From positions 1-54,711 of the IMG/VR virus record IMGVR_UViG_3300019742_000004: DNA of 54,711 bases; one strand, 5' to 3'. This stretch comes from a virus (Duplodnaviria; Caudoviricetes). Position numbers and translations under genes: made by a program. Below the pieces are notes generated by a model. The model was not told where the DNA came from. It did not search any database and worked only from the letters and a program-made list of their open reading frames with translations. Below are positions 1,539-37,825 of this stretch, piece by piece (position 1 is the first letter of the stretch; each line of letters begins with the position of its first letter).

Positions 1539-1643
1539 TATTTATATTCATTCTAAACACTTTTATACTTAGATTTGTGTAAACAAAAAAATAATAGGTA
1601 TGTATAAAAAGCGACGACGCAGGAGGAGAAATGAAGCCATAAC
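1539..1643 (+). repeat. 105-bp promoter/leader unit, copy 1 (inverted copy at 37721-37825)
   Basis: 102/105 identity to the reverse complement of 37721-37825; contains 19-bp operator-like box (1540-1558) and TAGATTTG -7 box (1570-1577); ends at AAC 1641-1643. Confidence 0.9.
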
Positions 1644-1719
1644 GGTACGGTTGTATATTATCGGTTGCTGATGAAGTGACCACATAAGTTGATTAGAATT
1701 ACTAACCGCCCAAACTTAG

Positions 1720-2061
1720 GTGCGTGGGCAAAAACTTTATGAAGCATTAGCATATGCTTATGAATTACTAAAAGAACAATCAGAAACAGGACACTACCCA
1801 GTAAGTGCACTTGCTGAAAATGGGGGTAAAGGTTATGAACCAATTACAAAAGTATTGAAAGAGTGTGAGGGCGAATATTTGAACGAGAGTAGCGGTTTGC
1901 ATTTACAACGTGTTAACGGCTGGCTTGAATTTTACGGAAACGAGCAGTTGTTTAATGACATGGCTAAACTTAATTGCCCTTGCAGATTTGATGATGGTAG
2001 CCAATGTAGATATAATGAAGAACACCCAATGGCAAAGCTAACGCACTTTAAAATAGTGTAG
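1720..2061 (+). CDS. hypothetical protein, cassette 1
   Basis: ORF (GTG start uncertain) reads through GTT 1912 and stops 10 nt before AAC 2071. Confidence 0.6.
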   Translation: MRGQKLYEALAYAYELLKEQSETGHYPVSALAENGGKGYEPITKVLKECEGEYLNESSGLHLQRVNGWLEFYGNEQLFNDMAKLNCPCRFDDGSQCRYNEEHPMAKLTHFKIV

Positions 2062-2130
2062 CTTGCCGTTAACGTGATTGGTATATAAACAAAATTTATT
2101 CACGGCAAATTTGCCACAAAAGATATTAAA

Positions 2131-2424
2131 ATGAAAGAACGTTTAAAATTACTACGTGCGGAGGCAAGCGACCTCCAAGAAAAACTTAGTAACAACAGTA
2201 AAGAACAAACAGAATTGATGATTGCTATTTACAAAGACGATACTAAGCTTGCTGTGGGCGATAAAGTGCTTGTTGACGGCAAAAAGAAAGGTGTAATCGA
2301 AAGCTTTGTCAGAAAATACAGTGAGGTTATGCCTAATGTGCAGTATTACAAGAAAGACGGAACGCTTGGTAAGAGATATGAGCGTGTGTGGGGTTTTCAG
2401 AAAATAGAAAAACTTAGTGAATAA
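2131..2424 (+). CDS. hypothetical protein, cassette 2 (inside the hairpin loop)
   Basis: Enclosed by a perfect 24-bp inverted repeat 2080-2103/2417-2440. Confidence 0.75.
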   Translation: MKERLKLLRAEASDLQEKLSNNSKEQTELMIAIYKDDTKLAVGDKVLVDGKKKGVIESFVRKYSEVMPNVQYYKKDGTLGKRYERVWGFQKIEKLSE

Positions 2425-2581
2425 ATTTTGTTTATATACCTTGTTGTGGTGTCGTTGCTTCTTTTGAAAGCGTGATGACGTTCAATGATTGCATATACTT
2501 ATTTATTATTTGCAATGCACCACAACGACTCGCATATGAGCCGTTTGGATTTAATAGTAAAAATTTCAAAAACATACAATA

Positions 2582-2938
2582 ATGAATGAAGAGAAAAAAG
2601 ATAATAACCGCACCGAAGCCCAAATGACTTATGATGCATTGTTAGCTACCGTTAAGTGCGGTGGGCTTTCAATCGATGAACTAAAAAGACTAAGAAATGC
2701 AGTGGTTGAAAAGGAAACAGAAAACTACCACAGCACAAGGAAGCTTATATATGAAATTGCATTAACTGACGATATGAGCCACTGCTTTAAAAAGCGTGAG
2801 GATGCAATTGAATACTTAACTACCGACCTTGAAGATAACGCAGAAGATTACTTTAACGAAAGTTCGGTTAGATTACGTGCGAGGTGGCTTGATATAGAAA
2901 CCTACAATGATTATAATGACCACTGGCTTGAAGTTTGA
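2582..2938 (+). CDS. hypothetical protein, cassette 3
   Basis: Starts in the loop and reads through GTT 2641. Confidence 0.7.
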   Translation: MNEEKKDNNRTEAQMTYDALLATVKCGGLSIDELKRLRNAVVEKETENYHSTRKLIYEIALTDDMSHCFKKREDAIEYLTTDLEDNAEDYFNESSVRLRARWLDIETYNDYNDHWLEV

Positions 2939-3103
2939 GCGGTGGCAATGGTAGCTAACGAAAAAGTATATGATTTCGAGCCGATAAATGGCACGACCTT
3001 ACGATAACAGATAAAGTAAATTAAAGATTATAAACAAACAAGATAGCACTAACACGGCTTGAATTATATACGGTGTTGTGCATCTTTTAAAAATGCGGAA
3101 ATA

Positions 3104-3310
3104 ATGAACGAAATTTATAGTGTAAAAGACAAATTGCCAGAGGTTGAATGTGGTAGCTACTTAGCTTATGCACCGCAAAGTTTCCCAAAAAATAGCCGAT
3201 GGGTAGTAGCTGAATATTATGATGATTCAAAAGGTTTTTATAGTGAATCAGGTGAGTTTTTTATGGATGACGTTACACATTGGTGTGAACTTCCAAAAGA
3301 ACCGAAATAG
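3104..3310 (+). CDS. DUF551-like phage protein, cassette 4
   Basis: SVKDKLPE...VTHWCELPKEP motif; in-frame ATG 3104 preferred over TTG 3059. Confidence 0.75.
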   Translation: MNEIYSVKDKLPEVECGSYLAYAPQSFPKNSRWVVAEYYDDSKGFYSESGEFFMDDVTHWCELPKEPK

Positions 3311-3451
3311 TAGCATTTTTTATTGTGCACAACGGTGGCAATAAGATTAAGCGTAGCGACCCGTAGGGTTAATTTTATTGCGTGTTGTGTGCTGTATAGC
3401 GACTTATCCCACGAATGATAATTAAATGTACTAATGTAAAAATATTTTAAA

Positions 3452-4348
3452 ATGTGCGATGGCAAAAATGGCTTTGAAAAAGCCAAAAATAAAGACCTTT
3501 TTGGTAATGAAATAATAACTAACCCATTATTGCGAGATAAATTTATTGAGCCACCTTTTTCTATTTTAGATAGTAAAAGTGGAAGTTGGAAAAAAAGGCG
3601 TAATTTATGGAAAAATATAGGCATAAAAAGTGAAGTTGGCAGAGATGTTAAAAGTATTGGATTATCTAAAAGTATATTAAATATTGGTAAAAATCATAAA
3701 GTGCATGAAGGTACTAGTATTTTTGACCCTGCATTGTGTGAAGTGATATATCATTGGTTTATTCCAAAAAATGGTAATATATTAGACCCTTTCGCTGGTG
3801 GTTCTGTACGTGGCATCGTTGCTAATTATTTAGGATATAAATATACAGGCATTGATATAAGGCAAGAACAAATAAATAGCAATAGGGAGCAAGCTATTGA
3901 TATACTTGACATAAATAACCAACCTCAATGGTATGTTGGGGATAGTAACGAAGTATTGAATGAATTTAACACTTCTTTTGATTTTATCTTTAGTTGCCCC
4001 CCTTATGCAGATTTAGAAGTTTACAGCGATTTGCATGGTGATATTTCAAATATGAATTATGTTGAATTTATGAAAGCATATGAAGAAATAATTGCAAAGA
4101 GTTGTAATTTATTAAAAAGCGGTGGTTATGCATGTTTTGTAGTTGGTGAGGTTAGAGATAAAAAAGGTAATTACATAGGATTTGTCCCAGATACAATTAA
4201 TGCATTTAAGAAATGCGGAATGAAATATTATAATGAAGGTATTTACTTGCAAGGATTAGCAGGTGCTTGTATGACCGCAGGGAAGCAAATGGAATCTTCT
4301 AAAAAATTAAGAAAAATACACCAGAACATATTAATATTTAAAAAATAA
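3452..4348 (+). CDS. DNA amino-methyltransferase (N4-C/N6-A), cassette 5
   Basis: SAM-binding LDPFAGGS and catalytic-like SCPPY motifs. Confidence 0.85.
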   Translation: MCDGKNGFEKAKNKDLFGNEIITNPLLRDKFIEPPFSILDSKSGSWKKRRNLWKNIGIKSEVGRDVKSIGLSKSILNIGKNHKVHEGTSIFDPALCEVIYHWFIPKNGNILDPFAGGSVRGIVANYLGYKYTGIDIRQEQINSNREQAIDILDINNQPQWYVGDSNEVLNEFNTSFDFIFSCPPYADLEVYSDLHGDISNMNYVEFMKAYEEIIAKSCNLLKSGGYACFVVGEVRDKKGNYIGFVPDTINAFKKCGMKYYNEGIYLQGLAGACMTAGKQMESSKKLRKIHQNILIFKK

Positions 4349-4352
4349 AATT

Positions 4353-4502
4353 ATGACACGTTTAACAAGATTACAAAAACACGGATGGAATGTAGTTAAT
4401 TATATGAGTGGTAATGGTTGCCAAGCAACCAAAAACAACGGATTAACTAAAATTACAGGGAAAAGCATTACTGATTTGCATAGACAAATATTTTGTTATT
4501 AA
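4353..4502 (+). CDS. small hypothetical protein (49 aa), cassette 5
   Basis: Read manually: MTRLTRLQKHGWNVVNYMSG...HRQIFCY*, 4 nt after the MTase stop. Confidence 0.55.
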   Translation: MTRLTRLQKHGWNVVNYMSGNGCQATKNNGLTKITGKSITDLHRQIFCY

Positions 4503-4626
4503 TGGCTTTTTCAAAGCCAAGAGGGAGGGAAATTTTAAAATATTTTGGGCAATATGGTACAATCTTTAATAAATGTACGGAACTAAGCCATATTGCATAC
4601 AACGTAAATAATAAATACAGTACGAC

Positions 4627-4875
4627 ATGAAAGCAGAATTATTTGATATATTAACGGACGTTGAAAAGGGCAGAATTACCGCCACCGTAGCCACTACAAA
4701 AGTATTGGATTTATTTAGTGTTAGCGGTAGTATTGGTGATATGATCGAGGACAATAGAACTAGATGCCCTAAATGCAAAAGTCCAAACATAGATCTTCCG
4801 CTAAGACTTACAAATTGGAGCAATACAGGCAAAGCAAAATGCCAAGAATGCGGTAATGAGTTTCACGACTTCTAA
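4627..4875 (+). CDS. zinc-ribbon protein, cassette 6
   Basis: CPKC...CQEC; reads through GTT 4720. Confidence 0.7.
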   Translation: MKAELFDILTDVEKGRITATVATTKVLDLFSVSGSIGDMIEDNRTRCPKCKSPNIDLPLRLTNWSNTGKAKCQECGNEFHDF

Positions 4876-4876
4876 T

Positions 4877-4926
4877 ATTACCGCTAACTACCCGATAAGT
4901 ACACATAAACATAATTACCTAACAAC
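4877..4926. repeat. attI-like array-terminal site, copy 1
   Basis: 50-bp perfect direct repeat of 24525-24574; ends 14 nt before the recombinase ATG. Confidence 0.85.
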
Positions 4927-4940
4927 TAGATAAATAAAAC

Positions 4941-5756
4941 ATGAGAAACTCTATACCTATTAGAAATTTAGAGGAATATATGTTTATAAAACAATATTCT
5001 AAAAATACTGTTGATAATTATATATCATGTATAAAAAATGTCTTGAAAAACTCTAACAAAGATGTATACCATTTAACAGTAGATGACTTTAATAATTATA
5101 TTATTAAAAGCAATAAATCATCTAGTTTTAATAACCTAGTTGTTAGTTCAGGTAAACTATTTTTTTATTATGGATTAAAAAGAAAATCAAATAATAAATT
5201 TTTACACAGACCTAAAAAATCTAAAAAAATAATAGAAATTTTAACACAAAAAGAAGTATGGAGTATTATAGATTCTATTAATAACATAAAACAAAAAAGT
5301 ATTATATCTGGTATATATCTTCATGGCTTAAGAATATCAGAGGTTCTGAATTTAAAGTACGAAAACATAGATAGACACAGAAAACTATTGACTATTAGAG
5401 AGGCTAAAGGTAAAAAAGATAGATTAGTCCCTTTAAATAAATTTTGGCTAGAGCACTTAGAAGTATATGCTAAGAAAATGAATCATAAAAAAGGTTATAA
5501 TGAACCAATATTTACTCCTTACTCTTTATCATCTATCAGAAGTACTTTAAAAAAGTACGCTAAAAAGGTAGGAATAAGAAAGAAAATATACCCTCATTTA
5601 CTTAGAGATACTTACGCGAGTCATTTATTACAAAGCGGCTTTGATATTTCGTTAATTCAAGAAATATTAGGTCATTCAAAAATATATACGACAAGGAAAT
5701 ACATACATTTTTCAGCGGTGAATATATCGGCTGTGTGCCTTAAGAAAGTAATTTAA
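4941..5756 (+). CDS. tyrosine recombinase (Xer/integrase family), candidate cassette integrase
   Basis: Complete catalytic set: GLRISE, KGKKDR, HLLR, LGH, TRKY; short SAM-like N-domain YSKNTVDNY. Confidence 0.92.
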   Translation: MRNSIPIRNLEEYMFIKQYSKNTVDNYISCIKNVLKNSNKDVYHLTVDDFNNYIIKSNKSSSFNNLVVSSGKLFFYYGLKRKSNNKFLHRPKKSKKIIEILTQKEVWSIIDSINNIKQKSIISGIYLHGLRISEVLNLKYENIDRHRKLLTIREAKGKKDRLVPLNKFWLEHLEVYAKKMNHKKGYNEPIFTPYSLSSIRSTLKKYAKKVGIRKKIYPHLLRDTYASHLLQSGFDISLIQEILGHSKIYTTRKYIHFSAVNISAVCLKKVI

Positions 5757-6347: not shown

Positions 6348-6845
6348 ATGAGTAAAACACACTACAGAAAAGTATTTAAATCAGATCATCTAGGACAAGC
6401 TGACTTAGAAGATATGATAGAAGAAGGTAAAAGATTAGTATTTACCATAAAAGAAGTAAGGCAAGAAATAGGCGTTTCGGTTGCTGGCAGAACAGGCAAT
6501 CATAATATAGCTTATTTCGTTGAACCTATCAAACCATTAGTGTTAAATGCTACTAATAGTAAAACAGTTAGAGGATTTAACCAGAACAGCCCGTTTGTTG
6601 AGGATTGGGGTAATACATTAATTGAACTATACATTGATACTAATGTTAAAATGAAAGGCGAAATAGTTGGAGGCGTGAGGATAAAACCAAAACAACCAGC
6701 GATAACTAAACCTGAAATCACACCAGATAGTGCAAAATGGAAAGACGCTGTAGCTTATTACGAAAAACATAAATGCTTTACAGGTGTGCTAAAACATTAT
6801 ACCCTATCCGAGGCTAACCAAAAAAAGATAAAAGATGAAGCTTAG
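6348..6845 (+). CDS. putative ssDNA-annealing/recombination partner protein
   Basis: Overlaps YqaJ gene start; function inferred from position only. Confidence 0.5.
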   Translation: MSKTHYRKVFKSDHLGQADLEDMIEEGKRLVFTIKEVRQEIGVSVAGRTGNHNIAYFVEPIKPLVLNATNSKTVRGFNQNSPFVEDWGNTLIELYIDTNVKMKGEIVGGVRIKPKQPAITKPEITPDSAKWKDAVAYYEKHKCFTGVLKHYTLSEANQKKIKDEA

Positions 6846-7491: not shown

Positions 7492-7857
7492 ATGAAATTC
7501 AAAGTATCATTTAAAAAAGAAGTAGAAGGTAAAATAAAGGCTGTATGGGTATTAATAAGCTCCGATACTTACGGACATGCCGAAGAACAGTTTTTCAATT
7601 ACTGCGAAGAACACGAAATACCTATGTCGTTAGGTGAGTATAAAATAGTACCCACGAAAATAACAGATATTATAGTAAATAAAGAGTGTAGCAACTGGTA
7701 TTTAATCACCTACGTAGACACATGTGACGACAAAGAAGTATCATTTCAAGCGTTAATCGAAAGTGACAACGATATAAACGCCCGCAAGGAGATTGAAGAA
7801 ATAGTAAACGTTAAGAGTACGGTATCAACAAAATATATAGATGTAATATGTCAGTAA
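7492..7857 (+). CDS. hypothetical protein (DUF4494-like)
   Basis: Resembles Bacteroidota DUF4494 layout; weak. Confidence 0.45.
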   Translation: MKFKVSFKKEVEGKIKAVWVLISSDTYGHAEEQFFNYCEEHEIPMSLGEYKIVPTKITDIIVNKECSNWYLITYVDTCDDKEVSFQALIESDNDINARKEIEEIVNVKSTVSTKYIDVICQ

Positions 7858-8255
7858 ACAAAGTAATTTTAGTGGGTCGAGTTGGTAAAGATCCTGAAAT
7901 AAAGTATTTAGACGGAGGTACTGCGGTTGCAAACTTTCCTCTAGCAACAAGTGAAAGCTACAAAGATAAGAGCGGCGAAAAAAAAGAAGTAACTGAGTGG
8001 CATAATATATCTATTTGGAGAAGTCTAGCCGAAGTTGTAGAAAAGTATGTTAAAAAAGGTAGTCTTCTATATTTAGAAGGTAAAATTAAAACAGAAACAT
8101 ACGAAAAGAACGGCGAAAAAAGATATTCAACAAAAATAGTCTGCAATCAAATGCAAATGCTAGGAGGCAACCAGACCAAGGAGCAAAAGCCAGCGGATAG
8201 TTTTGATAACGAACCTACGCCGCCGCCAGACGACATAAATGAATTTCCATTCTAA
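7848..8255 (+). CDS. ssb: single-stranded DNA-binding protein
   Basis: VNKVILVGRVGKDPE, TEWH, acidic C-terminus ending FPF. Confidence 0.95.
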   Translation: MSVNKVILVGRVGKDPEIKYLDGGTAVANFPLATSESYKDKSGEKKEVTEWHNISIWRSLAEVVEKYVKKGSLLYLEGKIKTETYEKNGEKRYSTKIVCNQMQMLGGNQTKEQKPADSFDNEPTPPPDDINEFPF

Positions 8256-8917: not shown

Positions 8918-8979
8918 GTTTAATGTTTTGTAATTTCATAAAAAGTATTAACTTTGTGAATATATCAATACACAAAAAT

Positions 8980-9684
8980 ATGAAGCATACATTAATGGAA
9001 AGGCCTTTAATGGGCAGTATGATAAGGCAAAGGGTAGATAATGAAATGCTATGCCTTACTGACTTATCAAGAATCTATGAAGCTGAAAGGGTTAAAAATG
9101 GATGGGTTGAAAAAAGATTAGACTGGTTTTTTAATAACGATTCTGAACAAGAGTATATTATAGAATTACTTGATTTACAGGGATGTTTCATAAACGTGAA
9201 AAAATTAACGTTTATGGATCAAGTTAAAAATCAAGGTCTTGTTAAATCTTTGAAATCAATAGGCCAATATAAGACAGGCGGTAGAGGTGAGAACAAAGCA
9301 GTATATTGTAATCCTTATATTTTTGTTGCTGTAGCTCAATGGTTGAATCCTAAATTTAGAGCGAAAGTTACAATGTGGGTAACCGATCAGCTTATTCTTA
9401 ATAGAATTGAAGCAGGAGCAAATTACAATACTCTTTGTGATTCTATAAAAGAAAAGATTCTTCCGCAAAGCAGTGATAATTCAAAGAAATTTATATTTTC
9501 TAACTTCGCTAAACTTATTAATAACCATGTATTCGGTAAGCATGACAGCGATTTAAGACACATAGCCAGTAAAGAACAGTTGACTAAACTAAGAGACACA
9601 GAAATAGAACTAACTACACTTATAAATGTAGGGTTTATTTCATCTTATCAAGAGGCTAAAGAATATTTAAAAAATAAGATATGA
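8980..9684 (+). CDS. KilA-N domain DNA-binding protein
   Basis: IRQRVD...LTDL, GRGENKAVYCNPYIFVAVAQWLNPKF; ATG 8980 follows a TAACTTTG box. Confidence 0.85.
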   Translation: MKHTLMERPLMGSMIRQRVDNEMLCLTDLSRIYEAERVKNGWVEKRLDWFFNNDSEQEYIIELLDLQGCFINVKKLTFMDQVKNQGLVKSLKSIGQYKTGGRGENKAVYCNPYIFVAVAQWLNPKFRAKVTMWVTDQLILNRIEAGANYNTLCDSIKEKILPQSSDNSKKFIFSNFAKLINNHVFGKHDSDLRHIASKEQLTKLRDTEIELTTLINVGFISSYQEAKEYLKNKI

Positions 9685-11839: not shown

Positions 11840-12226
11840 AACGTAGATGCGGTATGAGTAGGCCGCTTTGTAGACTGCTCAAAATTTAGTAATAGCCTTG
11901 ATAGCGGCTTACTTATGACCGCTTGTTAGGCACAGTACGATACTGAAAATGGAAAATTACATAGTGACACTAAAGAGAAGAACAACTCTAAAATGCTTTA
12001 GGAATAGGATTTTAAAAATGAGATTCGGGTTAAATAAAATCGAACATAGGAACTTTAGTAGACTTGATAACGGTTTGAAAAGAGGACACTTAAAATCCGT
12101 TGGTTCAAGAGAGCTATACAGGATATTGAATAGGTACATAAATATGAGTAACGAAGAGTTGTTTTGTAGCGATATATTTCTACTTGAGATAAAGTAGTAT
12201 TGTGTCTAACTAGTCGATAAAAACAC
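11840..12226 (+). mobile_element. single-cassette satellite array 2 with degenerate attI-like end
   Basis: AAC 11840; arms gcggtatgagtaggccgct / agcggcttacttatgaccgc; GTTaggcacagtac 11925 pairs with gtattgtgtctAAC ending 12210; then tagtcgataaaaacac. Confidence 0.8.
11949..12197 (+). CDS. hypothetical basic protein, cassette cargo
   Basis: ORF fits exactly between GTT 11925 and AAC 12208. Confidence 0.6.
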   Translation: MENYIVTLKRRTTLKCFRNRILKMRFGLNKIEHRNFSRLDNGLKRGHLKSVGSRELYRILNRYINMSNEELFCSDIFLLEIK

Positions 12227-14531: not shown

Positions 14532-14708
14532 ATGAAAAATAAATTTCCAGAAAATAAAAAACTTAGCATAAAATACAGGTGCAAAGAAGACGGCGGTGTA
14601 TATTCTGCCGAACAAGCAAGTAATATGCCTAACAATCATTTCAGGTTAATAACTGAGAAAGGCAAAGAAATTGGTGAATTTGTAAAATGGAGTGATGAAA
14701 CTAACTAA
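14532..14708 (+). CDS. hypothetical protein
   Basis: AGATATG start; overlaps the MTase start. Confidence 0.5.
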   Translation: MKNKFPENKKLSIKYRCKEDGGVYSAEQASNMPNNHFRLITEKGKEIGEFVKWSDETN

Positions 14709-15483
14709 AAAACAAATAAAAGCACACGAAGAGGCTTGCAAGTTACTAGAGAAAGATAAATTAACTTTTGAAGATAAGATTTATGTTTTAGATAATTGGC
14801 AAGAAGGAGCTAATAACGTTAATAGTGTAGCGGGTGCTTTTTTTACACCTTGGAAATTAGCAAGAGATTTTAAATTAGCTGTATATTCAGATAAGAGAGT
14901 TATCGATCTATGCGCAGGAATAGGTGCTTTGTCTTTATTCATGGTAGAGCATGCCAAATGGGAGCAGAAAGTACCTGAAATAGTATGTTTAGAACTTAAC
15001 CACTCTTACATAGAAGTAGGTAAAAAAATAGTTCCTGAAGCAACTTGGATACATGGCAGCGTATTAGATCCTGAACTTATAAACTCATTAGGTCATTTTA
15101 CGCAAGCTATTTCTAATCCTCCTTTTGGAAGTATTAAAACAGGATCAGAATATAAGAAGTTTCTAAAATATAAAGGCTCGCAATTCGAGCTGAAAGTTAT
15201 AGAGATAGCTTCGCAGATCGCGGATTTTGGAAGTTTTATAATTCCCCAAATGAGTACACCTTATAAATATTCTGGAAATAACGGAATGTACGAAATGAAA
15301 GGAGATGAAATGCCACAAAAAGTTAAAACATTTATAGATCAAACTAAACTAGAGTATGATTTCAATTGCGGTATTGATACAGAGCAATATATAAACGAAT
15401 GGAAAGGCGTATCACCGATGTGTGAAATAGTTACTTTTGATTTCACACAAACTAAAAAAGCAATCCAACAAACATTATTCTAA
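14692..15483 (+). CDS. DNA adenine methyltransferase
   Basis: GAFFTP, VIDLCAGIGAL and NPPF motifs. Confidence 0.85.
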   Translation: MMKLTKKQIKAHEEACKLLEKDKLTFEDKIYVLDNWQEGANNVNSVAGAFFTPWKLARDFKLAVYSDKRVIDLCAGIGALSLFMVEHAKWEQKVPEIVCLELNHSYIEVGKKIVPEATWIHGSVLDPELINSLGHFTQAISNPPFGSIKTGSEYKKFLKYKGSQFELKVIEIASQIADFGSFIIPQMSTPYKYSGNNGMYEMKGDEMPQKVKTFIDQTKLEYDFNCGIDTEQYINEWKGVSPMCEIVTFDFTQTKKAIQQTLF

Positions 15484-15761
15484 TGGCAACAGATAAACAA
15501 CATTATAATTCAATTGTTAAGCGAGGTCTTATAAACGACAAGACAAGTAAACAAGACTTCAGAAAACAAATCATAGAAGAATTTCAAGAGCTAATAAAAG
15601 AACTCTACTACAACATAGATAATGATAAATTAAACGCAAAAGAGATACAAGAAAGCGTTGATTTAGTGCAAACTATAAAGAATATGTTTATCTATTTTGA
15701 CGTAGATTACAACACAGCTTTAGAAGTTAATATTAATCACCAACTAAGCCGTAAAGACTAA
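15483..15761 (+). CDS. MazG-like/all-alpha NTP pyrophosphatase-like protein
   Basis: EEFQEL...QESVDL acidic helices; weak. Confidence 0.4.
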   Translation: MATDKQHYNSIVKRGLINDKTSKQDFRKQIIEEFQELIKELYYNIDNDKLNAKEIQESVDLVQTIKNMFIYFDVDYNTALEVNINHQLSRKD

Positions 15762-15884
15762 TTTATATTTGTTCTAAACAACTAAATCACGATATTCGTA
15801 ATGAATTAGAAACCCAGATGTGAAATATAATTTTAACATTATAGATTCAGTTTAAGACTTCTGGGTTTCTTTAAAAACTAAGAT

Positions 15885-21780: not shown

Positions 21781-22203
21781 ATGAAAGAAATAAAATACAA
21801 TGCAGGAGACTTCGTTTATGACGACGAAAACAAAATATGTAGAATAAGCACCTCATATACTGACAAGAAAAAGAACTACGAAGGATATTCAAGAAACGAA
21901 GATATACAAGTAGAATATAACGATTCTGAAAACATTTATCTATCTAAAGTAGTTAATCCAATTCCTTTAAACGAGGAGTTGCTTTTGAAGTGTTGGTTTG
22001 AGAAGTATTCAAAAGACCATTTTATACTTAATGGAATATTAGGTACAAGGAAAATACACGCTTATACGTGTGAAAATAATATTTCTTTCGAGTTAGGCAA
22101 CCGAAGCGGATATAGTTTCGGACAACCTAAAGTGAAACACCTCCACCAACTCCAAAACCTATACTACGCCTTAACCCAAGAAGAACTACCCATCAACCTC
22201 TAA
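21781..22203 (+). CDS. hypothetical phage protein
   Basis: PIPLNEELL...HQLQNLYYALT motif common in Bacteroidota phage ORFs. Confidence 0.6.
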   Translation: MKEIKYNAGDFVYDDENKICRISTSYTDKKKNYEGYSRNEDIQVEYNDSENIYLSKVVNPIPLNEELLLKCWFEKYSKDHFILNGILGTRKIHAYTCENNISFELGNRSGYSFGQPKVKHLHQLQNLYYALTQEELPINL

Positions 22204-22263
22204 TTTATATTTGTTCTAAACAAATAAAGCCGTAATATTGAAATGAATTAAAAAACCAAGGAT

Positions 22264-22617
22264 ATGAATGACGCATGGATAGACGATAAAGGAAGGTTAA
22301 TCGAGGTAAGTACACATAATAGATATGCTAGTGAACTACTTGAGAAAGAAATGGGGTTCGAAGAATTGTATGAATACCTTGAAAACAACGATATAGAATA
22401 CCCGTATCAACTTTTACACAAGAGAGGATGGGTGAGAGTCAAAGTTTATAGTGCAGGTAGAATACAGATATTAGGTGACTGCATAGATTTAACTAAACAA
22501 ATGCGAAATACTATTGACCCAGCTATGAACGATAGACAATTAAGAGTAGCTAAACAACTTTGTAGAGAAGTAGGAATGGATTTTCACAACGCAATAAACG
22601 ATCGTAGATTTTGGTAG
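22264..22617 (+). CDS. hypothetical protein
   Basis: AWIDDKG...H...RGWVRV. Confidence 0.6.
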   Translation: MNDAWIDDKGRLIEVSTHNRYASELLEKEMGFEELYEYLENNDIEYPYQLLHKRGWVRVKVYSAGRIQILGDCIDLTKQMRNTIDPAMNDRQLRVAKQLCREVGMDFHNAINDRRFW

Positions 22618-23007: not shown

Positions 23008-23427
23008 AACCAGAGTATAAAAATTTTCTAGGTACACTAGTACTATCAGTAATAGTTTTAATTTTAATCTTTAAATTGTTAAAAATGGAAGAAGAAGAAA
23101 AAGTAGTAAACGAAGAAACAACAGAAACTACACAAGTAGAAAGTAATGACTCTGATTCAGATCATGTGACAGATGTGTTGTGGTAAGGTAAAAACGCCCC
23201 TCTCTGGAATATGGGAGGGGTTAACGTAGATGCGGTATGGTTAATAAAAAGCAACCACCGCAGCAGATTCAAAGCATTAAACTTCATTTGCTTTTTATTA
23301 ATTATGACCGCTTGTTATACCCCGTTTTTGTGGGGTGGACGAAAATAATTTACAGAAAAGTTTATTTTTATTTGGTAGTTAATACAGAAAACTGTATATT
23401 TGAAGTGTAATTTAAAAACTACAAGAT

Positions 23428-23595
23428 ATGGAACGTAGAATTAAACCAGATGTACAGATAAAATTAGAACCAATGGAGTACATAAAAAGAAACGCAAAAA
23501 CGGAACACCATTTTAAGGGCGTACCAAAGAAATACAAGGTGAAAACTATTGAAAATGGAGAAGTTAATTATTACAAAAGTGGACTTGAAGTATGA
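23428..23595 (+). CDS. small hypothetical protein (55 aa), cassette cargo
   Basis: Read manually; preceded by TATATTTG box and AGATATG. Confidence 0.6.
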   Translation: MERRIKPDVQIKLEPMEYIKRNAKTEHHFKGVPKKYKVKTIENGEVNYYKSGLEV

Positions 23596-23747
23596 GCAAC
23601 TTAATTAAATGGAGCGAACTGAGCCGCATATTAAGCGGTTCGGATAACTCTATAAGACCAAATAAAATACCAAAGAAATACGAACGCAAGGTTAAAAGAT
23701 TACTTCGTTTGCTAGATGCGTGGGAGCGTTTGGCAAATGGGGTATAA
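23592..23747 (+). CDS. small DNA-binding-like protein (51 aa), cassette cargo; paralog of 32019-32174
   Basis: MSNLIKWSELSRILSGSDNSIRPNKIPKKY; stop TAA lies in the junction TAAC. Confidence 0.7.
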   Translation: MSNLIKWSELSRILSGSDNSIRPNKIPKKYERKVKRLLRLLDAWERLANGV

Positions 23748-23852
23748 CGATTAATTATATGGGTAGTGCAACCCTCTAAACTGCACGAAAGTTGATTAAA
23801 TGTAGAACCGTTCCCGTTTTATTTTTTGAGCGTGGGCATAAAATTAAATAGA

Positions 23853-24119
23853 ATGAATGAATTTAAAGAGAAAAACCCAGAAATGTACGAAGAAATGGTT
23901 AACCAAATTTGCGATAGAATTGGTTGTGACCCTGATGAAGTAAAAGAAGCTAAAAATGTTAGAGATGATTTAGGCTTTGATTCATTAGATGAAATTGAGA
24001 TGATAATGGATTGTGAGCAAATGTTTGGTATTACCATAACTGACGATGAAGCCGAAGCCACAAATGGGGATATGCTTGAAATATGCAACGGGTTACAGCG
24101 TGCGGTGGAGAAAAAATAA
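23853..24119 (+). CDS. acpP: acyl carrier protein, cassette cargo
   Basis: DDLGFDSLDEIEMIMDCEQMFGITITDDEAE with phosphopantetheine-site Ser; acidic 88 aa. Confidence 0.85.
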   Translation: MNEFKEKNPEMYEEMVNQICDRIGCDPDEVKEAKNVRDDLGFDSLDEIEMIMDCEQMFGITITDDEAEATNGDMLEICNGLQRAVEKK

Positions 24120-24307
24120 AACTTGCACAAACGCTGATTAAACGCACGTTGCATTACCTATATAATGTGTTAGCAGCTGGCTTTACTTCTTAAATGTGGT
24201 AAAGCTAGAAAACAAGCATAGGTATTAATTTATTTAAGCTTGCCGCTAACGGTGTGAGTATGTTTAGTTGCGATACTGAACACAAAACTTAATTAAATAT
24301 TGATACT

Positions 24308-24535
24308 ATGAATAAAGCAGAAAGATTATTAAAAGGACTGAAACCGCAATTAAATATACTTGATGTTAGCTGTAGTTCTTTGAGACACCCAAAATGCAAA
24401 GGATTTAAAACGCCTGATGTTGGGTGGGGCAGTGACTATGATTGTGGTTACGACACTACAATAGACTGTGATGAATGTAAATATGGAGGCGGTAGAAAAG
24501 ACCCAGAAGCTAAATGTAATACGAATTACCGCTAA
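24308..24535 (+). CDS. Cys-rich hypothetical protein, cassette cargo
   Basis: Reads through GTT 24365; stop TAA lies in the junction TAAC. Confidence 0.65.
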   Translation: MNKAERLLKGLKPQLNILDVSCSSLRHPKCKGFKTPDVGWGSDYDCGYDTTIDCDECKYGGGRKDPEAKCNTNYR

Positions 24536-24574
24536 CTACCCGATAAGTACACATAAACATAATTACCTAACAAC
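24525..24574. repeat. attI-like array-terminal site, copy 2
   Basis: Identical to 4877-4926. Confidence 0.85.
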
Positions 24575-25074
24575 CAAGCAAATAAAATAGCATTTTGACA
24601 TGATATCCTCTAAACCATGTCAAGATATAGAGCTTATTTATATTGATTCTAAAAGATAGGTTTTATATCTTAGCATTCTAAAATATACAGATATGATACA
24701 AATAGCAAGCTCAAAAACAAAACTAGATATGATAAGCGATGTCGAAGAAGAATTAAACTTTGAAATACTAAAATACTGCTGTAAGGGATGGAAAGTATTT
24801 AAGCCAACTTACCTGTATTACTCAACAGATAATAAAAGGTATAGATACAAAGCAGAGCTGAAGAAATAGGATAATTAATTAATAATTAGTAAATTGCATA
24901 AGATGGAAGACTTTAAAAAACTGATTAGTTCTCTGGATGTGATTAAACAAGAGCTAATTATTTTAAACAAGAAGATAAAAGAATCTTCACAGGCTACAAA
25001 AGAGCTGGAAATCGAATTAAATAAAATAACAAATAGACCGCTATGGATGCGGTTGATATATTAAAATTAGAGAT

Positions 25075-37612: not shown

Positions 37613-37720
37613 GCAAAGTCTTTTCTTGTGTTTGTCGCTAATTATTTCTATATTTTAAAGTTTGTATCTCGCATTATCTTTGGTAAGTTATTCATCAAGC
37701 AACGGCAACTTACCTAAACA

Positions 37721-37825
37721 GTTATGGCTTCATTTCTCCCCCTGCGTCGTCGCTTTTTATCCATACCTATTATTTTTTTGTTTACACAAATATAAGTATA
37801 AAAGTGTTTAGAATGAATATAAATA
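37721..37825 (-). repeat. 105-bp promoter/leader unit, copy 2
   Basis: Reverse complement of 1539-1643 with 3 mismatches. Confidence 0.9.

Follow-up and report, generated by a model that had tools for sequence, protein, structure and literature searches.

Tandem gene units with attC-like single-strand sites beside an IntI-related recombinase in a tailed phage: a probable integron-like cassette system

The stretch of DNA analysed here, called the window below, is the whole of IMG/VR virus record IMGVR_UViG_3300019742_000004, a linear sequence of 54,711 bases from a tailed phage of flavobacterial type (Duplodnaviria; Caudoviricetes) that is about 69% complete by estimate. It encodes a large terminase, a DnaB-type helicase, a recombination exonuclease, endonuclease VII and an open reading frame (ORF) at 7848-8255 that reads, from its translation only, as a single-stranded DNA-binding protein (SSB). 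Our subject is a row of six tandem gene units, array 1, which is bounded by the trinucleotide AAC and adjoins a tyrosine recombinase gene; with two further arrays described below, the window carries three in all. A preliminary description of array 1 had proposed a phage-borne integron-like system on the strength of seven AAC marks and six pairs of complementary arms, and all of these are present: AAC occurs at 1641, 2071, 2524, 2957, 3331, 4601 and 4886, and every one of the six units contains a second, reverse-complemented copy, with GTT at its head, of the bases that run up to and include its closing AAC. A unit extends from just past one + strand AAC to the next AAC, and each of its ends carries a half-site, the whole site being one that only the + strand, when single-stranded, can form. 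The features of array 1 are listed below, where an X interval reaches from AAC to the next GTT, the L stem closes the X interval and the R stem pairs a GTT arm with the right arm that ends in AAC.

1644-2073, + strand: unit 1, with X interval 1644-1911, GTT arm 1912-1920, ORF 1720-2061 and right arm 2065-2073 (arms of 9 nt).
2074-2526, + strand: unit 2, with gene 2131-2424 in the loop of L stem 2080-2103/2417-2440, GTT at 2443 and right arm 2518-2526 (9 nt), the arms being only 75 nt apart and 3' of the gene.
2443-2526, + strand: the 'empty' R-stem element of unit 2, with a conserved 55-nt core.
2527-2959, + strand: unit 3, with a 114-nt X interval, GTT arm 2641-2650 inside ORF 2582-2938 and right arm 2950-2959 (10 nt).
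2960-3333, + strand: unit 4, with a 115-nt X interval, GTT arm 3075-3082, DUF551 gene 3104-3310 and right arm 3326-3333 (8 nt).
3334-4603, + strand: unit 5, with a 50-nt hairpin (3338-3381), GTT arm 3384-3392, two ORFs and right arm 4595-4603 (9 nt, one G·T mismatch).
3452-4348, + strand: N6/N4 DNA methyltransferase gene of unit 5 (Pfam PF01555, 6.5e-13).
4353-4502, + strand: second ORF of unit 5.
4604-4888, + strand: unit 6, with a 116-nt X interval, GTT arm 4720-4729 inside ORF 4627-4875 and right arm 4879-4888 (10 nt).
4877-4940, + strand: terminal AAC-T site (AAC, then T), a candidate attI-like site, with 51 nt to the recombinase start.
4941-5756, + strand: tyrosine recombinase of 271 aa (PF00589, 1.5e-33; SAM_4).

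The ORFs bear out one gene per unit and two in unit 5, as first described; in array 1 no AAC cuts an ORF, and 3/6 of the GTT do. The further statement that a hairpin lies 5' of each gene needs correction. The GTT arm of units 1, 3 and 6 falls inside the ORF, so that the hairpin interval holds the gene start, the gene of unit 2 sits in the loop, and the hairpin of unit 1 is weak (L stem -8.3 kcal/mol, own partner rank 12/26). The L stem of unit 2 is a perfect 24-nt inverted repeat, and those of units 3 and 4 give -18.0 and -21.6 kcal/mol, respectively, each with its own partner at rank 1. For the segment 3326-3392 the fold is an attC-like hairpin of -14.2 kcal/mol (z -3.6; 0/200 shuffles as good). 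The 'empty' element of unit 2 folds with a z of -3.1 to -3.5, and its 55-nt core is kept in a related phage (L014), the changes in its arms being compensatory. Pfam and PHROG searches gave no family match for the unit 1 ORF, and the unit 6 ORF has weak zinc-ribbon-like Pfam matches, every one below cut-off. Rfam at gathering score gave 0 matches and a tRNA scan 0 genes. We also noticed a small palindromic hairpin (GGCTTT/AAAGCC) that occurs twice in unit 5, at 3469-3485 in the first methyltransferase codons and at 4503-4519, 3' of the second ORF.

Lining up the units of the window and its relatives gave a left half consensus of tAAATATAC-N3-5-GTT-arm-(T)CGTT or TGGCT and a right half consensus of AATG or GCTT-arm'-AAC-G-N5-6-G(G)TATAT, with the GTT and AAC triplets invariant in all units listed. 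X intervals alternate with Y intervals (GTT to AAC), the latter closed by the unit-specific R stem, which consists of GTT plus 6-7 specific bp and then a recurrent G·T, and the former by a site-specific L stem of 16-20 bp. The order on the + strand is therefore arm'-AAC, a spacer of ~5 nt, L stem, loop, the other half of the L stem, a spacer of ~2 nt and GTT-arm, with a boundary of ~50 nt and an asymmetric spacer between R and L stems (medians of 5 nt from AAC to stem and 2 nt from stem to GTT, 39 of 42 stems used). Short X intervals span 49-121 nt, and four in the window measure 114-116 nt; 11/26 phage intervals exceed 141 nt, many of them carrying genes. 'Empty' Y elements are ~80 nt long and their cores are kept between distant phages: the one at window 24153-24252 is 80.6% identical to 8931-9031 of phage L015, the recombinase genes being ~65% identical. 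Because a MAFFT alignment of nine such elements was poor, four were aligned instead, and compensatory arm change around conserved cores was seen in 6/10 stem pairs. The 39 stems contain 22 bulges (21 of a single nucleotide), 12 on the AAC arm and 10 on the GTT arm, an assignment to arms that is ambiguous in duplexfold. On inspection by eye, several sites have ATAT[G]AC on the GTT arm.

The pairing of the L stems is specific to the partners within a site. Over 26 X intervals from five phage lineages, pairing with the own partner averages -18.7 kcal/mol, against -7.8 kcal/mol with other partners; the own partner ranked first in 20/26 intervals, and the observed mean was reached by 0/10,000 permutations. 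Own-partner pairing holds even across 370-800 nt with a gene in between. A matrix built from loci outside the window gave 13 + strand matches of at least 13 bits, including 9 left ends of window units, and thereby revealed arrays 2 and 3. When complementary arms were combined with the matrix, the window had 10 + strand and 0 - strand matches, and five shuffled 228-kb sets gave 0; 7 of the 10 are true units and 3 are long-range mispairings of true sites. On the matrix re-finding and the permutation and shuffle results a chance origin of the sites was rejected. A crude count, which took every GTT/AAC 8-mer pair up to 1.5 kb apart, does not stand out (50; 20 shuffles averaged 37.7), and a count of outermost trinucleotides over all maximal inverted repeats was uninformative; the signal is the run of consecutive GC-rich pairs whose right arms lie just past stop codons. 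The two arrays revealed by the matrix are these.

11840-12210, + strand: array 2, with AAC 11840-11842, an 82-nt hairpin interval, GTT at 11925 and arm-AAC-T at 12202-12210.
23223-24536, + strand: array 3, three units, with AAC at 23223, 23746, 24248 and 24534 and GTT at 23314, 24169 and 24365.

The pairing, mismatch and spacer counts took 11843 and 23226, in place of 11842 and 23225, for the first AAC of arrays 2 and 3, and these two flanks are one base off in them. Array 2 is a single unit with an 82-aa ORF (11949-12197) and an L stem of -31.9 kcal/mol; 3' of it, a small ORF from 12278 looks by eye, from sequence alone, like a helix-turn-helix protein. Array 3 holds an acyl carrier protein-like gene at 23853-24119 (phrog_5934, 2.5e-12) and a Cys-rich ORF of 75 aa. 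Its end, 24525-24587, is a 94% copy of the block before the recombinase (4877-4939), and the arms of unit 6 recur at window 24365/24528 and at 6625/6770 of L015. The 5' border of array 1 is likewise formed by a repeated block.

1539-1643, + strand: leader block at the 5' border of array 1, 105 nt, closing in AAC 1641-1643.
37718-37825, - strand: second leader copy, 96% identity, with AAC 37721-37723, then T.

The leader contains a promoter-like stretch, AGGAGG and a mini-ORF of 3 codons (ATG AAG CCA TAA), and the homology of the two copies breaks off exactly past AAC. The - strand copy, with its AAC, T and two small genes after it, may possibly be an unoccupied platform. At both places (1620-1643 and 37721-37745 on the - strand) AGGAGG or GGGGAG is followed by a mini-ORF whose stop overlaps the AAC border.

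Translation of the recombinase gene gives catalytic residues R131, K156, H219, R222, H245 and Y254. The best-scoring model is NF040815, 'site-specific tyrosine recombinase/integron integrase', at 181.5 bits and below its cut-off of 220. The IntI model TIGR02249 reaches 126.9 bits (cut-off 265) in two stretches, residues 8-180 and 201-264, and its profile positions ~180-258, the insert region, are unmatched; the label 'non-IntI' was thus apt. The equivalog models for XerC and XerD were missed as well (TIGR02225, 138.5 with a cut-off of 329.6; TIGR02224, 135.9 with a cut-off of 335.15). Leef_1, a Polaribacter phage with an integrase 37% identical to the window recombinase, scores 189.2 bits with NF040815 and five bacterial relatives score 220.6-240.3 bits, above the cut-off; all six likewise miss the IntI insert. 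Judged by these profiles, the recombinase is IntI/Xer-related and devoid of the IntI insert. A classification paper, in the part available, puts integron integrases in an 'integron-like' subgroup.

About 35 homologues of ~270 aa, with 45-61% identity, all lie on metagenomic contigs. DNA similarity to 50,697 phage records was confined to short methyltransferase-like matches, the leader and the terminal block each had 0 exact-pattern matches in viral contigs, and a single-recombinase query of viral contigs found no related loci; the recombinase alignment used as query found 2 viral, 12 metagenome and 2 genome loci. Eight related lineages (the window, L006, L008, L009, the L010 group, L014, L015 and L018) were compared. 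AAC-T lies 45-55 nt 5' of the recombinase start in 8/8 of them, and GTT/AAC units are seen in every lineage having upstream sequence. Between phages, the DNA becomes homologous 0-17 nt ahead of the terminal AAC and stays so throughout the recombinase gene, with starting points as follows.

L006/L008: homology starts at 114/144.
L008/L015: homology starts at 145/9911.
L007/L008: homology starts at 1560/128.
L009/L014: homology starts at 265/5097.

The upstream arrays are unrelated between phages (one inter-phage ORF match at E <1e-4). At closer range, the strain variants L010/L011, L007/L012/L013 and L016 are >99.8% identical downstream and differ in their arrays; variant B has two extra units, and perfect L stems occur in B and C, a hybrid one in A. 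Some R stems recur between genomes: GTTAGCGGTA is found twice in the window and in L015, GTTGGCAGTA is shared by the cultured Polaribacter phage P12002L and Leef_1, and GTTGTATG by the window, L014 and P12002L. P12002L has the same site family on its coding strand, around methyltransferase genes, and the coding-strand array of Leef_1 ends 55 nt 5' of the integrase gene. The unit of methyltransferase gp36 in P12002L (L022, 30055-30912, - strand) has arms that do not match, GTTACCTGT against GTTGCTAAC, and looks fused or recombined.

A homologue of the recombinase (E <=1e-35) is encoded by 74 of the 401 Bacteroidota genomes that were sampled, with 32-43% identity bar one match of 55% on a 3-kb contig. 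A loose structural scan of bacterial loci gave 280 matches against 144 in shuffles, and arms plus the phage-derived matrix were used in its place on 24 loci. With this search 1-4 units stand directly beside the recombinase gene in 17/24 loci, and five shuffled sets gave 0. The bacterial cassette ORFs fill the GTT-to-AAC interval and run antisense to the folding strand: the ORF is opposite that strand in 22/27 units, on the same strand in 2, and 3 have no ORF of at least 60 aa. The recombinase gene is upstream and co-directional in 13/16 loci and divergent in 3/16. Six bacterial hairpin intervals measure 114-121 nt, and loci L046 (561-3906, four cassettes) and L050 (4957-7917, three cassettes) have intervals of 114-121 nt with sequences unrelated to those of the window. 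In locus L040 (216-2335) the lone cassette beside the recombinase is a LinB-like nucleotidyltransferase (PF21418, 2.3e-23), and its arms GTTAGCGGTA/TACCGCTAAC are those of window unit 6.

The mismatches in the stems tell which strand folds. All mismatches were scored alike and the internal stem mismatches were then counted, with the following results.

52 phage stems: G·T 45, A·C 3, other 13.
16 stems of cultured phages: G·T 13, A·C 0, other 6.
35 bacterial stems (antisense strand): G·T 31, A·C 0, other 7.

Repeats in duplex DNA would give both kinds equally, so that the large excess of G·T over A·C means that one strand is selected to pair. In the phages the folding strand is the coding strand, which leaves a reading in terms of RNA open. 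In the bacteria it is antisense to the cassette genes, and the structure there is consequently not a feature of mRNA, which argues for a structure that belongs to single-stranded DNA.

Such sites recall the attC sites of integrons. In the sections available from PMC5027507, attC recombines as a folded bottom strand that is cut between A and C of the R-box 5'-AAC-3', has an unpaired spacer between L and R boxes and extrahelical bases opposite the AAC arm, is 57-141 bp long, and has a bottom strand enriched in G:T mispairs. To judge from their sequence, the window sites conform to the attC hairpin. AAC and GTT triplets, R stem, unpaired spacer and L stem follow one another in a folded single strand as in canonical attC, the AAC lies on the 5' arm and the folding strand is rich in G·T as in the recombinogenic bottom strand, the short forms agree with attC in size, and, as in integron cassettes, the start of a unit is complementary to the arm before its own AAC. 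Unrelated small genes arrayed beside a tyrosine recombinase are a further likeness to integrons, and so is the order on the folding strand, where the units, the terminal AAC and a sense recombinase gene 3' follow in turn. The differences are several. The spacers are 5 and 2 nt here, against 5-6 nt on both arms of attC, the L stems of 16-20 bp and the several arrays per phage genome are unlike canonical integrons, and the recombinase is without the IntI insert. Canonical cassettes have the ORF on the top strand and attC at its 3' end, whereas the genes of the window lie on the folding strand, point toward the recombinase, and begin inside a site or occupy its loop. The inverted polarity noted in the preliminary description is thus right for the phages and the reverse of what their bacterial relatives have. 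The Bacteroidota loci of NF040815 type share site matrix, arms, 114-121-nt intervals and insert-less recombinase with the phages, and their cassette ORFs, antisense to the folding strand, are canonical-like and opposite to those of the phages. Integrons are very rare in Bacteroidetes, according to the part of the IntegronFinder 2.0 preprint at hand.

There is a second precedent for sites of this kind. CTX-type phages integrate their single-stranded DNA by XerC/D at a folded hairpin, and the proposed system resembles them in that a Xer-type recombinase would act on a site which only folded single-stranded DNA provides; there, however, a whole filamentous phage goes into dif, whereas here cassette arrays lie in a tailed phage.

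We think it probable that array 1 belongs to an integron-like cassette system composed of single-strand sites and an insert-less IntI-related recombinase, in a phage form with inverted polarity. The anatomy of the sites, their strand specificity, their conservation and their linkage to one recombinase clade are observed; circle formation, crossover point and catalysis belong to the following model. Once excised, a circular unit would take the form of a dumbbell whose central duplex (L stem, bubble and GTT/AAC R stem) would mimic a recombinase core site, as attC does. The insert-less IntI-related recombinase encoded downstream would cut in AAC on the folded strand and exchange units between folded sites and the AAC-T site before its own gene, a site that also closes arrays 2 and 3. 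The phage could in this way gain, lose and reorder small accessory genes such as methyltransferases and ORFans. More tentatively, and with somewhat less conviction than doubt, we suggest that the phage arrays are one branch of an unrecognised Bacteroidota-wide integron class with insert-less IntI-related recombinases and attC-like sites of ~130 nt, in which the phages would carry the genes on the recombinogenic strand, some even passing through the site, and have several arrays served in trans. The 'integrase' genes of many flavobacterial phages would then be cassette recombinases and not signs of lysogeny, and phages would trade cassettes such as methyltransferases as counter-defence modules.

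A number of observations weigh against an integron-like system. The insert is called essential for integron function in the available text of PMC8138268, and the recombinase has none. A gene placed in a loop, or an ORF running on through the L' and R' halves, is not what known cassettes look like, and gene-carrying loops of 370-1900 nt should fold poorly; in 6/26 X intervals the own partner is not first, the extrahelical bases are not assignable to one arm, and one P12002L unit has non-matching arms. Identical R stems flank unrelated genes, which is unexpected for a strictly cassette-owned R box. The break points of the strain variants lie inside X intervals, in shared sequence and not at AAC, so that homologous exchange shapes the arrays too. 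The shufflable platform with borders at the + strand AAC, as first proposed, is partly supported, among other things by the leader, by the ORF borders and by the inter-phage homology starting close to the terminal AAC; the variants, which break inside units, speak against a simple form of it. No recombination product was seen. Mining for circle joints reached three runs that hold the stretch, as contigs only, and speaks neither way on excision; it gave no usable circle or deletion joint, the two joints listed have sides of only 21-23 letters, and the loose ends at 1539, 1643 and 4926 are other repeat copies.

Several of these points would also suit the main rival account, in which the sites are real and the recombinase is a lysogeny integrase or has some other role, the arrays being CALIN-like relics (CALIN, an attC-site cluster that has no integron integrase) or hot spots turned over by homologous or illegitimate recombination. 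T4-type phages offer a parallel, with regulatory stem-loop cassettes that are proposed to recombine as conserved intergenic modules. The variant break points in shared X sequence and the one hybrid L stem agree with such turnover, as do the same stems with different cargo; arrays 2 and 3 have no adjacent recombinase and the P12002L arrays no annotated one, which counts against the integron-like reading as well, and the exonuclease, SSB and endonuclease VII of the phage could drive the exchange. The authors of the Leef_1 genome paper took its integrase as a sign of temperate potential, with no repeats mentioned in the part of the text available (PMC8776804). We nevertheless regard this account as unlikely. 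Units are linked to the recombinase in 8/8 close lineages, in Leef_1 and in 17/24 bacterial loci, usually within ~100 nt of the gene, invariant GTT and AAC triplets and strand-specific pairing serve no role in homologous exchange, and the 401 Bacteroidota genomes, a small sample, hold no prophage with a close homologue, the lone close match being on the 3-kb contig.

The stems might instead act in RNA, bracketing the cistrons of a polycistronic transcript so that it is processed, stabilised or terminated, G·U pairs being tolerated. Genes are indeed bracketed by stems, in the four phage groups examined it is the coding strand that folds, and G·T makes up ~7% of pairs, as in RNA helices. Set against this are the bacterial folding strand, which is antisense to the genes in 22/27 units with its 31 G·T and 0 A·C, pairings that reach 1.2-1.9 kb, the link of the sites to a DNA recombinase and the empty Rfam search. 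Structure in mRNA was rejected on the bacterial antisense folding, and we hold it very improbable. Still less credible is that the complementary arms are inverted double-stranded sites with a private overlap between which the recombinase inverts the segment, as in a shufflon. Left and right sites are near reverse complements, and tyrosine recombinases require identical overlap regions, as this idea would have it. The ORFs, however, are co-oriented in all arrays, their antisense frames look non-coding, no inverted form occurs in relatives or strain variants, and the asymmetry of G·T and A·C bespeaks selection on a single strand and not on duplex sites; with units and ORFs co-oriented and pairing strand-specific, an inversion system was rejected.

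The integron-like system has been partly anticipated in print for one phage host, as a CALIN, so far as the available sections of PMC9892861 go. There, Qi et al. (2023) report 17 phage CALINs found by IntegronFinder and HattCI+Infernal. P12002L, counted among the virulent phages, is one, with two predicted attC sites, two methyltransferase genes, 'divergent directions' and no integrase; methyltransferase cassettes are noted, and IntI1 recombined one of the two sites into attI1. This experiment would favour the integron-like reading, P12002L having the site family of the window. Nothing was met in those sections on how the units are built, on the clade of the recombinase, on the terminal site or on the bacterial relatives. 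Our literature search found no paper that joins this recombinase clade to such arrays, PMC9892861 being the nearest.

A working insert-less system, if real, would widen a definition of integrons that is based on IntI and expose a blind spot of current integron detectors. Tailed phages would then own a site-specific means of shuffling accessory genes such as DNA methyltransferases, and 'integrase' in flavobacterial phage genomes, at present a mark of temperate potential, would have to be read differently. It would also provide a second natural structure-specific recombination system as a tool. Leef_1, a cultured Polaribacter phage, has both recombinase and array, which makes the proposal testable.

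Outside the arrays, the window encodes a second DNA methyltransferase at 14692-15483 (phrog_3820, 8e-94), and a direct repeat of ~70 nt with 83% identity occupies two other intergenic places, 15758-15824 and 22200-22268. The motif (G/T)TTGATTAAATG occurs at window ~23791-23802 and at ~661-672 and ~1309-1320 of L007, ~45-70 nt 5' of start codons and inside X intervals of different phages, and it may be a promoter element.

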